Shown here: positions 34,927 through 36,879 of the stretch, in pieces
How the letters are laid out: each line of letters opens with the position of its first letter
Position numbering within the stretch: the stretch's first letter is position 1
Assembly (NCBI GenBank): GCA_045636665.1
Contig: JAZTXY010000086.1
Span: 2,974-66,973, forward strand
Length of the DNA: 64,000 nucleotides
DNA from: Eubacteriales bacterium
GTDB taxonomy: Bacteria; Bacillota; Clostridia; Oscillospirales; CAG-382
Direction of reading: 5' to 3'
The notes under the pieces: model-generated
Told to the model about the DNA's origin: nothing
Databases searched by the model: none
What the model saw: only the letters and a program-made list of their open reading frames with translations
Position numbers and translations under genes: made by a program

Positions 34927-36108
34927 ATGGGAAGAACAAAGATCAATGTGACAGCGGTTATTGATGCGTCCAATCAAATCAATTCCGCAAAGTCCAATGT
35001 CAGTTCAGCCAAAAGTGCCTTTGCCCAAACCAAAAACGGCATTGACGGTAAAATCCAGAACAGATCCAATATTCGAAACCGACTGGGGACGGTTAGCAGC
35101 CAGCTGTCCAGCATTGATTCCCAAATCGGCAAAATCCGCACAATGGTTCAAAACGGTGCGAATTTGTATAGAACCACAGATGATCGCGTTGAAACAATGC
35201 GTCAACAGGTTAATGCAAATATTTCTGCCAGAACAGCTACCGAGCCAACAAGCAAATGGGCAGGCTACTTTAATACTTCTGCCGAAAAAGTTAAGGACAG
35301 TTCTTTCATTGATGAGTTAAAAAAGAACTACGGTGTGGATGATCTTTTGGCTGGGAGTGGATATATCGGAAAGATTTATGGTTTTATTAACGATATAAAA
35401 TCTGCAGAGGGCTGGTATGATTATGTTGATACTAGTGCCAATATCTATAGTTTCTTGACAGATGCAAAAAAGACTTGGAAGGACTATAAGTTGATTGGGA
35501 ATGCAGTAGGTGTTAAAAAATCGACTACATGGTGGTTCAAAAATGTGACGGGTATTAAACCACTTGGACGTTCATCTACAGCAAGTACCTGGATAAAGCG
35601 TTTCAGCAATAATCTAACCAATAAAACATCGCCATTTGCGGCTCAGTTAAAGGATATCGGAAAGAACTTTACTGGTGCTAATGGCGTTGGAAAAGCTGTT
35701 TCCTCTTGGGCATCTGTTGCTGTTACTGGTGTTGTCAATTTTTTTGGCAACAAACAAGAACAGAAGGAATCTAATGGTACGATGTCTGATGGAAGAGTAG
35801 TTGCTGAAACTATAACTGAGACCGCTATAGATACGGTAATAACGCTAGGAGCAAGTGCTGTTGTTGGTGCAGCGGTAGCTGCATGTACGACGGTTGCGTT
35901 GCCGGGTGTTGTTGTGACTGCAGCAACGGGTCTGGTGATAGCAGGTGTCAATGCTGGTATTAAAACTCTGACAGGAAAGACATGTACGGAATGGGCATCC
36001 GATGTCATCTTGGATACCGGAGAGAAAGTTGTTAACGCAGTAGGAAATGCTGCAAAAAGTGTCAAAAATGCCGTTGGTGGCTGGTTGAAAAAATTAAAAT
36101 TTGCTTAA
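34927..36108 (+). CDS. LXG-like/WXG-superfamily helical N-domain protein with a glycine-zipper-type hydrophobic C-terminal region (candidate T7SS membrane-active effector)
   Basis: The N-terminal ~95 aa or more are helical and lack a signal peptide (KINVTAVIDASNQINSAKSNV...RTTDDRVETMRQQV). The C-terminal AIDTVITLGASAVVGAAVAACTTVALPGVVVTAATGLVIAGVNAGIKTL (about nt 35820-35965) is small-residue rich. A DUF4176 gene lies downstream. Confidence 0.5.
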   Translation: MGRTKINVTAVIDASNQINSAKSNVSSAKSAFAQTKNGIDGKIQNRSNIRNRLGTVSSQLSSIDSQIGKIRTMVQNGANLYRTTDDRVETMRQQVNANISARTATEPTSKWAGYFNTSAEKVKDSSFIDELKKNYGVDDLLAGSGYIGKIYGFINDIKSAEGWYDYVDTSANIYSFLTDAKKTWKDYKLIGNAVGVKKSTTWWFKNVTGIKPLGRSSTASTWIKRFSNNLTNKTSPFAAQLKDIGKNFTGANGVGKAVSSWASVAVTGVVNFFGNKQEQKESNGTMSDGRVVAETITETAIDTVITLGASAVVGAAVAACTTVALPGVVVTAATGLVIAGVNAGIKTLTGKTCTEWASDVILDTGEKVVNAVGNAAKSVKNAVGGWLKKLKFA

Positions 36109-36121
36109 TTGGAGGTTTGTT

Positions 36122-36391
36122 ATGAACGTTAAAGATTTATTGCCTATCGGAACAGTGGTTTTGCTGAAGAACGGTGAAAAGAGACTTATGATAGCGGGCA
36201 TCAAACAGATGGATACCGAAGATACATCAAAGGAGTATGATTACTACGGTGTTATGTATCCCGAGGGTCATGTTGGAGAAAATTTCCAGTATCTTTTCAA
36301 TCATGAAGATATTGCTGAGATTTACTTCAAAGGGTTTGAAGATGAGGAGCGCGAACGATTTCTGGATCAGTTAGCTAAGATTTATCGCTAA
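36122..36391 (+). CDS. DUF4176-family small protein (recurrent T7SSb/LXG-neighbourhood accessory protein)
   Basis: LPIGTVVLLKNGEKRLMIAGI...YDYYGVMYPEGHVG...FNHEDIAEIYFKGFEDEE matches my memory of the DUF4176 pattern. ATG 36122 sits 6 nt after ggagg. Confidence 0.7.
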   Translation: MNVKDLLPIGTVVLLKNGEKRLMIAGIKQMDTEDTSKEYDYYGVMYPEGHVGENFQYLFNHEDIAEIYFKGFEDEERERFLDQLAKIYR

Positions 36392-36402
36392 TACACTATG
36401 TT

Positions 36403-36879
36403 ATGACTAATCATATTGTCGTAATAATATCGCTATTTTGTATATATTTCCACATCAGTGGCTTAGCCACAACCAATATTCTTCGCCTGACGGTGGGGAA
36501 CACAACACCGGTGCTGGCGTCAAAGTGCTATTGCGATAGCTGTGGTGCCACAATTCCTCCGCATCTGCAGTTGCCAGTCATATCTTACGTTCTTTGTAAG
36601 GGTAAATGTAAAAAATGCGGCGCTCGTATCCCGTTGTTTCCTTTGCTGTTGGAGTTAACCATCCTTTTTGGAATGTTTACAATAACCGTGCTTTTAGGAT
36701 GCACATTTTTGGCTGTTAGCCTTAGCTTTTTATTTTATGAGCTGGTCCGTATTTTAACGGTTGCCGTTTTCGGAAAACGTGCCGAGCAGTTCAAAAAACA
36801 GTACCTAATAGCGGTTTTATCAATGCTGCTATTCTATATTTTAACGTTGTTTATCGCATTGATCTATAGCTTGGTTTAA
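36403..36879 (+). CDS. Polytopic membrane protein consisting only of a prepilin-peptidase N-terminal (DiS-P-DiS, CxxC...CxxC) domain. No A24 catalytic Asp motifs; possibly a remnant.
   Basis: CYCDSCGATIPPHLQLPVISYVLCKGKCKKCGARIPLFPLLLELT parallels the PilD-type N-domain (CxxCG...IP..SY....G.C..C...I....P..El). The remaining about 70 aa are TM helices without GxGD or other Asp motifs. No Shine-Dalgarno sequence is visible upstream. Confidence 0.55.
   Translation: MTNHIVVIISLFCIYFHISGLATTNILRLTVGNTTPVLASKCYCDSCGATIPPHLQLPVISYVLCKGKCKKCGARIPLFPLLLELTILFGMFTITVLLGCTFLAVSLSFLFYELVRILTVAVFGKRAEQFKKQYLIAVLSMLLFYILTLFIALIYSLV

Follow-up and report, generated by a model that had tools for sequence, protein, structure and literature searches.

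A modular effector candidate with a WXG100-like domain, a conserved membrane hairpin and a small DUF4176 gene at the end of a type VII secretion cluster in a Clostridial genome

The 64,000 nucleotide (nt) stretch of DNA analyzed here, termed the window, comes from Eubacteriales bacterium (GenBank assembly GCA_045636665.1, contig JAZTXY010000086.1, positions 2,974 to 66,973). Near its middle, at the 3′ end of a long co-directional gene cluster, three open reading frames (ORFs) follow one another on the plus strand, at the positions given in an initial annotation of this DNA: a 393 amino acid (aa) protein, designated X, at 34927-36108, a protein with a DUF4176 domain at 36101/36122-36391 and a 158 aa membrane protein at 36403-36879. 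The sequence AGGAGG is found 9 nt 5′ of the ATG at 34927. The start of the DUF4176 gene is most likely the ATG at 36122, as homologues are 88-90 aa long. This leaves 13 nt after the stop codon of X, and a further 11 nt separate the DUF4176 gene from the 158 aa gene, both as annotated. This is a real effector cassette. X is probably a membrane-inserting cargo effector secreted by the adjacent type VII secretion system (T7SS), which is of the T7SSe type, with the small DUF4176 protein as its chaperone. The best description of X is that of a T7SSe polymorphic effector, in which a WXG100-like export hairpin is joined to a new conserved membrane-hairpin domain and accompanied by a small DUF4176 chaperone. 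The general nature of the cassette, a T7SS-associated modular effector with a membrane hairpin and a small DUF4176 partner, had been read correctly in the initial annotation. Its labelling of X as LXG-like was wrong, and its suggestion that 36403-36879 could encode the immunity protein is probably wrong.

X has no signal peptide, as had been noted, and its sole hydrophobic stretch is centred on residues 308-337. The description of its N-terminus as helical is borne out by the AlphaFold2 (AF2) model, which places a hairpin at residues 8-104 with per-residue confidence (pLDDT) above 90. The two helices span residues 8-38 and 49-104 at pLDDT 90-97 when the model is built on a 126-sequence alignment. 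With a 20-sequence alignment the mean pLDDT was 39 and the model was uninformative beyond the N-terminal hairpin; the mean rose to 68 with 126 sequences, residues 323-393 still being below 50.

A comparison by hhalign of 36 diverse N-domains with 14 WXG100 proteins of the same loci gave a probability of 97.4% and an E-value of 1.3e-11 over 95 columns, end to end. The X-family profile also matches the second WXG100 gene of the window itself (29959-30258, E-value 9e-6), as well as WXG100-sized ORFs in several other genomes. Among natural proteins in the PDB, the end-to-end matches to the N-domain are EsxB/CFP-10, at an E-value of 4.5e-5. The sole residue that is invariant among the 36 diverse N-domains is Y81. 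It is followed four positions on by Asp or Glu, the consensus being YxxxE, and this Y81xxx[D/E] aligns with the YxxxE of the WXG100 profile. YxxxD/E is established as an export signal for substrates of the T7SSa only, and in X the sequence Y81-R-T-T-D85 may serve as a motif of the same type.

The N-domain differs from WXG100 proteins such as EsxA/EsxB (PF06013) at the turn of the hairpin, where the W-x-G is replaced by I-D-G-K in X and by L-D-W-D or L-x-[WF]-x in most relatives. The Pfam WXG100 model (PF06013) by itself has no match in X and matches only weakly in eight of the 126 family members. Likeness to the WXG100 proteins thus lies in the helical hairpin of about 100 residues, the profile-level homology and the YxxxD/E motif. 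The LXG profile PF04740 finds no match in X at E≤1. The 126 family members are likewise free of matches at E≤0.01, and so is the whole genome at E≤0.1, a search in which a B. subtilis control was positive. The N-terminal helical LXG domain is about 200 aa long, whereas the confidently modelled N-domain of X has about 100 residues. On the profile homology, the AF2 hairpin, the YxxxD/E motif and the EsxB/CFP-10 matches, the N-domain is assigned to the WXG100 superfamily and not to LXG. The label of "LXG-like" is therefore dropped; similarity to the wider LXG/WXG superfamily, on which the initial annotation depended, is present in the WXG100 form.

Partners of the Lap1/Lap2 type would be small helical proteins encoded next to the effector. 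No small helical gene lies directly upstream of X in the window, where a 210 aa WXG-like coiled coil is found two genes upstream; elsewhere X comes immediately after a WXG100-like gene. The L-D-W-D turn of the family may be akin to the "LDxD" trafficking domain. Zhang et al. 2012 describe polymorphic toxins with WXG, LXG and LDxD trafficking domains and give no testable definition of the last. X shares with their WXG-type polymorphic toxins the attachment of a C-terminal module to a T7SS trafficking domain.

The C-terminal domain, termed Xc (residues 125-393), belongs to no Pfam or NCBIfam family, and Foldseek finds nothing below an E-value of 1 in the PDB. The alpha-pore-forming toxins AhlB, MakA and SmhB appear in the Foldseek list with a probability of ≤0.05, which is not evidence. 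A PDB profile search with the whole 393 aa protein was dominated by coiled-coil noise, and neither this search nor the Pfam and NCBIfam scans of X gave a match to a toxin domain of the TspA, TelD, TelE or EsxX type. A match to DUF6861 just above the cut-off in one distant member (P0199) led nowhere; that family is mentioned in one unrelated paper. In the AF2 model Xc is all-helical, with pLDDT 60-86 for residues 150-320 and below 50 after residue 323. The linker that precedes it (residues 111-144) has pLDDT below 50 and is the most gapped and variable part of the homologue alignment.

The most distinctive part of Xc is a hydrophobic hairpin of about 48 residues, the only segment of X with a Kyte-Doolittle value of at least 1.6. 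Among 126 distant members, P326 at the turn is conserved in 96%, and small residues occupy positions 314-316, 318-319 and 324-325 in at least 90%. The hairpin is flanked by near-invariant polar residues, which are N275, E278, R290, E294-T295 and E298-T299 before it and T349-G350-K351, T354-E355, S358-D359 and D363 after it. The initial annotation had seen a glycine zipper in this stretch. By the strict definition of PMC12744356, i.e. (G/A/S)xxxGxxxG or GxxxGxxx(G/S/T), no such motif is present in residues 299-347, which contain one GxxxG (G340-G344) and three small-xxx-small-xxx-small runs. A strict motif is found somewhere in the last 140 residues of 76 of the 126 relatives. The small-residue packing face, together with the conserved charged flanks, would fit an oligomerising, ion-conducting insertion element.

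Strict motifs of the glycine-zipper type are present in X only outside the hairpin, in the conserved middle part of the protein. These are SGYIGKIYG (residues 144-152, nt 35356-35382) and GNAVGVKKS (residues 191-199, nt 35497-35523). The sequence IGNAVG is invariant among the close relatives of X.

The gene directly 3′ of X had been called DUF4176-like, and the profile check bears this out (PF13780, E-value 1.8e-27, 95.6 bits against a cut-off of 25). At 89 aa the protein falls within the small class of DUF4176 proteins, defined as 70-130 aa (PMC12478183). It is the sole DUF4176 of the genome, in a 1:1 relation with X. A small DUF4176 gene directly follows Xc in all 13 independent loci for which downstream sequence is available, including those in which Xc has other N-domains. 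In one locus, which belongs to a different type of T7SS (L027:9425-10594), Xc is followed by two tandem DUF4176 genes and then by a 162 aa protein with a prepilin-peptidase N-terminal domain (A24_N-like) that is 30% identical to the 158 aa protein of the window. No DUF4176 gene follows the lipase effector of a syntenic locus (L016), despite the shared N-domain; some other C-domains that are carried on this N-domain also have one (L009, L010, L011, L030 and L043).

The closest solved structure to the DUF4176 protein is 9dcs_A (E-value 1.1e-11). This is MQE10_09270, a small DUF4176 protein; when it is missing, the membrane-depolarising toxin TelD cannot be detected in cells (PMC12478183). The same 2025 study proposed, as a speculation, that small DUF4176 proteins bind and shield the membrane-inserting helices of toxins. 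Likewise the pore-former TelE needs the DUF4176 protein LcpE, by which its middle and C-terminal regions are stabilised. DUF4176 tracks the C-domain and not the N-domain, which is what the helix-shielding hypothesis predicts. The genetic linkage suggests that the protein is the cognate cytoplasmic chaperone of Xc.

The pair of TelD and MQE10_09270 in Streptococcus intermedius GC1825 is comparable to the present cassette in that a membrane-targeting effector exported by a T7SS is paired with a small DUF4176 protein needed for its intracellular stability. However TelD has a PF04740 LXG domain and Lap partners, where X has the WXG100-like hairpin of 100 aa and no LXG match. The immunity protein of TelD, TipD, is of the DUF443 family, which is not found in this genome, and the small DUF4176 gene follows the immunity gene in the TelD locus, while here it directly follows the effector. 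TelE of S. gallolyticus and EsxX of S. aureus ST398, compared by description, have a similar layout, in which a helical domain at the N-terminus serves T7SS targeting and a helical domain at the C-terminus contains a small-residue-rich hydrophobic segment, which in TelE and EsxX acts on membranes. Unlike X, whose hairpin has a single GxxxG, these proteins contain LXG domains, and their strict glycine zipper is an extended one. They also have dedicated immunity in the form of soluble DUF5085 proteins, and for EsxX the polytopic ExiCD in addition.

The modules of X are shuffled independently of each other. The N-domain is 74% identical in a 372 aa effector of the syntenic locus L016, in which similarity to X fades after about residue 92 and the C-terminus is a Mbeg1/lipase-like domain with the motif GHSLGG. 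It is 76% identical in a 483 aa protein with a different C-domain (L030) and 66% identical in a 438 aa protein with a third kind of C-domain (L010). Altogether N-domains of 66-76% identity are found on four different C-domains. Conversely, the C-domain (residues 125-393) keeps an identity of 58-71% in proteins with N-domains at only 17-26%, e.g. in a mobile-element variant with integrase and relaxase genes (P0042) and a Lachnospiraceae variant (P0014). A locus that has DUF5344 Lap-type genes encodes it behind an N-region of unrelated sequence (P0009, L027), and in all it is found behind three kinds of N-region. The shuffling of trafficking and C-terminal modules is a hallmark of polymorphic effectors and argues against a fixed structural subunit. 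The possibility that X is a core subunit of the machine that replaces EssB/EsaA was rejected, as syntenic loci fill the slot with lipase or other domains.

One fusion, P0123 (L028:8001-10265, 754 aa), consists of a Mbeg1/phospholipase-like domain, an alternative N-region and the membrane-hairpin domain, with one DUF4176 gene after it. Its alternative N-region (MxRDFSE...DFTDWIGDRWYDFE, no Pfam match) also heads P0009, P0129, P0139 and P0156. The syntenic lipase effector (L016:6805-7923, also in L017) is followed by no DUF4176 gene and no obvious immunity gene, and then by a 158 aa A24_N-like gene. Alternative C-domains on the same N-domain in L009:1501-2676 and L010:1489-2805 are rich in Gly, Ala and Val with an alternating beta-like pattern and match nothing in Pfam. 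Next to the L010 copy comes a gene for a 141 aa protein that has a transmembrane (TM) helix at either end and is plausible as an immunity protein, and after it a DUF4176 gene; the L009 copy is followed by an 83 aa Zn-ribbon protein and a DUF4176 gene.

More than 300 close homologues of X are 370-395 aa long. A profile search of 1.8 billion representatives (50%-identity clusters) gave 1097 cluster representatives at E≤1e-3, nearly all of 330-430 aa. A search for related loci with the X alignment and strict patterns yielded nine loci. The homologues are always in T7SS loci, after WXG100 genes, and they occupy the same slot in at least five locus architectures. X is single-copy in its genome. The family is found in one of 251 genomes of the same order (five genomes of the same genus lack it) and in two of 399 genomes of the class. 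By comparison, one variant is present on more than 660 contigs and is annotated as common to several Clostridia. Named carriers include Lachnospiraceae, Ruminococcus, Faecalibacterium, Erysipelatoclostridium and metagenome-assembled genomes of Oscillospiraceae. The sporadic distribution and the variant on more than 660 contigs fit an accessory cargo that moves horizontally.

The commonest homologue is part of a compact T7SS (L001:1-21146), in which a Band_7/double-Zn-ribbon gene is followed by EssC-FHA, YukD, three WXG100 genes, X, DUF4176, a PP2C phosphatase and a kinase. This locus lies on an integrative mobile element, as shown by the genes on its flanks, which encode a phage-type integrase, a relaxase, a NikA/MobC-like protein and a 2776 aa SNF2-helicase protein.

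In the window, Pfam scans show that the cluster that ends with the cassette begins with a LytTR two-component pair, a Hanks kinase and PP2C phosphatase, a Tad-type pilus module and a DUF6382-FHA protein, after which come the EssC gene and the remaining genes listed in Table 1. By its gene content the cluster is assigned to the T7SSe type described by Garrett, Higginson and Palmer (2024, PMC11217815), with which it shares two WXG100 genes, YukD, an FHA-bearing EssC, DUF6382-FHA, small single-TM proteins, a kinase and PP2C. It differs in that X and DUF4176 are named there neither as components nor as substrates, DUF4176 never being mentioned. EssB/YukC was not found in the genome; EssA and EsaA were not searched for separately. 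The 97 aa TM and Zn-ribbon protein encoded just 5′ of X was considered as an immunity protein and rejected, as it is kept whatever the effector.

Table 1. Coordinates in the window of the effector cassette, the parts of X and the upstream T7SSe genes
Feature	Position	Strand	Basis
X, 393 aa modular T7SS effector candidate: WXG100-like export domain, disordered linker, helical C-domain	34927-36108	+	ORF with ribosome-binding site
X residues 1-105, WXG100-superfamily helical hairpin, predicted T7SS targeting domain	34927-35241	+	AF2, hhalign, PDB matches
YxxxD/E motif Y81-R-T-T-D85, near end of helix 2	35167-35181	+	Conservation, alignment with WXG100 profile
X residues 111-144, variable, probably disordered linker; N- and C-modules swapped in or near here	35257-35358	+	
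X residues 125-393, conserved all-helical C-terminal domain Xc	35299-36108	+	No known family or fold
X residues 299-347, Ala/Val/Gly/Thr-rich transmembrane helical hairpin, turn A-L-P326-G	35821-35967	+	Kyte-Doolittle, conservation
Small DUF4176 protein, 89 aa, predicted cytoplasmic chaperone of the C-terminal domain	36122-36391	+	PF13780
158 aa polytopic protein, prepilin-peptidase N-terminal (four-Cys) domain without peptidase domain	36403-36879	+	PF06750
Upstream T7SSe machinery, predicted exporter of X	24778-34894	+	Pfam scans
EssC/TseC with FHA	24778-29370	+	
YukD-like protein	29367-29618	+	
Two WXG100 genes	29633-29941, 29959-30258	+	
773 aa signal-peptide protein	after WXG100 genes, before 32787	+	
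210 aa WXG-like coiled coil	32787-33419	+	
DUF6382-Zn-ribbon-FHA protein (second DUF6382-FHA of the cluster)	33422-34585	+	
97 aa TM + Zn-ribbon protein	34601-34894	+	

A possible course of action of X can be outlined from these features. The N-terminal hairpin with its YxxxD motif would recruit X to the EssC/TseC ATPase. It would probably do so in a four-helix bundle, with a small WXG100-like protein of the locus as the putative partner. The flexible linker would join this hairpin to the helical domain, the key element of which would be the TM hairpin with its flanking invariant Arg, Glu, Thr, Ser and Asp residues. In the cytoplasm of the producer, DUF4176 may bind and shield the hydrophobic part, as suggested by the role of the DUF4176 protein of TelD, and so keep X stable and harmless until export. 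After export the hairpin may insert in a target membrane and oligomerise, which would cause ion leakage or depolarisation.

Several results weigh against X being a membrane-active effector of this kind. No conserved or cognate immunity gene was found at the Xc loci examined, where the downstream genes differ and none co-varies with the C-domain. The X-DUF4176 pair is followed in Lachnospiraceae-type and mobile-element loci by PP2C and kinase genes or by a VWA-FHA gene, and in others by an A24_N-like gene, and the uncharacterised genes of the compact mobile-element locus include no membrane protein. Known membrane-depolarising T7SS toxins almost always have an adjacent polytopic immunity protein (PMC12744356), and the DUF443 type has no representative in the genome. 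In addition the C-domain is unusually well conserved for a toxin engaged in an arms race. The hairpin lacks a strict glycine zipper, residues 323-393 are poorly modelled by AF2 and no fold match from Foldseek against the PDB supports pore formation. The missing immunity gene weakens the claim of an antibacterial toxin, and three options remain: DUF4176 suffices for protection and kin are spared, the target is not a sister bacterium, or X is a non-toxic membrane-inserting accessory.

The last of these options would make X an immunity-free protein that acts as translocon, anchor or pore in the producer's own envelope or in a target membrane, thereby helping other cargo or contact-dependent functions. 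It would account for the lack of an adjoining conserved immunity gene in any of the architectures and for the roughly one dozen near-invariant polar residues of the C-domain across the 126 distant members. It also agrees with the presence of X as a single copy, always after WXG100 genes, and as the sole non-core cargo of the compact mobile-element T7SS on more than 660 contigs. The fusion of Xc downstream of a lipase in P0123 is what might be seen with a delivery module. However, in syntenic loci the same N-domain carries a lipase or another C-domain and X is not in the vicinity, which indicates that the machine works without X. X is also not among the core T7SSe components, which were defined from many genomes (PMC11217815), and known toxins are paired with DUF4176 proteins in the manner of X. 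This alternative is thus rated as unlikely. The same rating is given to the proposal that Xc, instead of being an antibacterial toxin, is a secreted module that needs no immunity and inserts in membranes, so that as translocon, pore or anchor it would be the working end of T7SSe-like systems in Clostridia. Mobile elements would have spread it, together with its dedicated DUF4176 chaperone, across gut Clostridia, in about 1000 clusters that are described in no library.

The initial annotation had proposed that X is a membrane-active antibacterial effector and that the 158 aa protein could be its immunity protein. In its full form this reading makes X a membrane-depolarising toxin and the 158 aa protein its cognate immunity protein. 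The 158 aa protein is indeed polytopic, with three to four hydrophobic segments, and its gene closely follows the DUF4176 gene; toxins of this kind are usually neutralised by a polytopic membrane protein (PMC12744356). The identity of the protein had not been recognised. It matches PF06750, the prepilin-peptidase N-terminal domain (E-value 6.3e-12, 45.8 bits against a cut-off of 23). As in the prepilin peptidases PilD/ComC (Peptidase A24), there is an N-terminal membrane domain with a four-Cys cytoplasmic loop. Unlike these enzymes, the 158 aa protein has no match to the peptidase domain PF01478. D45, which lies in the Cys loop, is the sole Asp of its 158 residues, and as two catalytic Asp residues are needed the protein cannot be an aspartyl prepilin peptidase. 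Its family comprises some 210 proteins with a length of about 158 aa, in which H17, T23, T24 and R28 in the first TM helix, the four Cys residues, E84 and Y112-E113 are invariant. A split prepilin peptidase, made up of the 158 aa protein and the product of the Peptidase_A24 gene at 14225-14902, was considered and is unsupported, most homologues of the 158 aa protein being in unrelated contexts.

The distribution of this family bears on the immunity proposal. In favour of a link, L006 has the same succession of Xc, DUF4176 and A24_N-like genes, and so does L027, there with a different N-domain and the 30%-identical protein. However, a copy that is 67% identical follows the L016 lipase effector, in a locus with neither Xc nor DUF4176 and with no other immunity candidate, although this copy could be an orphan left after replacement of the toxin. 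Other copies adjoin effectors of this N-domain family with different C-domains (L030, L043), or lie beside plain WXG100 genes in different T7SS (L014/L034, L044). In 16 species-representative genomes no copy is next to Xc, two are near other effectors of the N-domain family and two are beside WXG100 genes. For the other 12, no T7SS gene lies closer than 7 kb, and the surrounding genes encode giant Ig-like surface proteins (four cases), a ClpB-like ATPase and glycosyltransferases. Moreover the gene is absent from the 10 other Xc loci examined, which include those of the mobile-element type and those of Lachnospiraceae, Ruminococcus, Erysipelatoclostridium, Oscillospiraceae and L028. It is kept beside unrelated effectors and is usually found outside T7SS loci, thus the 158 aa protein is probably a lineage-conserved accessory membrane protein and not a toxin-specific immunity protein. 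The toxin-immunity pairing of X with 36403-36879 is accordingly regarded as improbable. In four species (L032, L033, L035, L038) the homologue is encoded directly after the giant Ig-like surface protein, of 2100-2300 aa.

A third alternative, that X acts on non-bacterial membranes (host, protist or fungal gut cells) or on bacteria with a receptor that the producer does not have, so that self-immunity is unneeded, would agree with the absence of an immunity gene, with the gut and rumen Clostridia as carriers and with a lipase effector that shares the N-domain and also has no obvious immunity gene, but it has no positive evidence, the characterised DUF4176-paired cargo of T7SSb is antibacterial (PMC12478183), and it is held to be very doubtful.

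X as a membrane-inserting T7SSe cargo effector with a DUF4176 chaperone remains the preferred interpretation. Hardly any substrates have been assigned to T7SSe or to the other type VII variants described of late, and the X family would offer a concrete and abundant candidate for T7SSe cargo. The family is also a natural test of the proposal that small DUF4176 proteins shield helices, in that over several domain swaps the predicted chaperone gene has stayed with the membrane domain and not with the targeting domain. The lack of an immunity gene is a real puzzle. Either self-protection differs here or these proteins are not interbacterial toxins, and both answers would change how such loci of gut commensals are read.

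Two further observations concern the surroundings of the cassette. The Tad-type pilus module (9695-22253) has genes for a CpaF-like ATPase, TadZ, TadB/C-like, Peptidase_A24, TadE-like and DUF5702 proteins. It is headed by the kinase and PP2C pair (7115-9679) and runs co-directionally into the T7SSe genes (22988-36879) with no obvious break. At the other end, no intrinsic terminator was detected. A near-consensus sigma-70-like promoter at 36981-37009 (TTGAAA, 17 nt, TATAAT; 11 of 12 matches) lies just 5′ of the PGA_cap gene at 37042, and it fits a T7SS transcription unit that ends at 36879.

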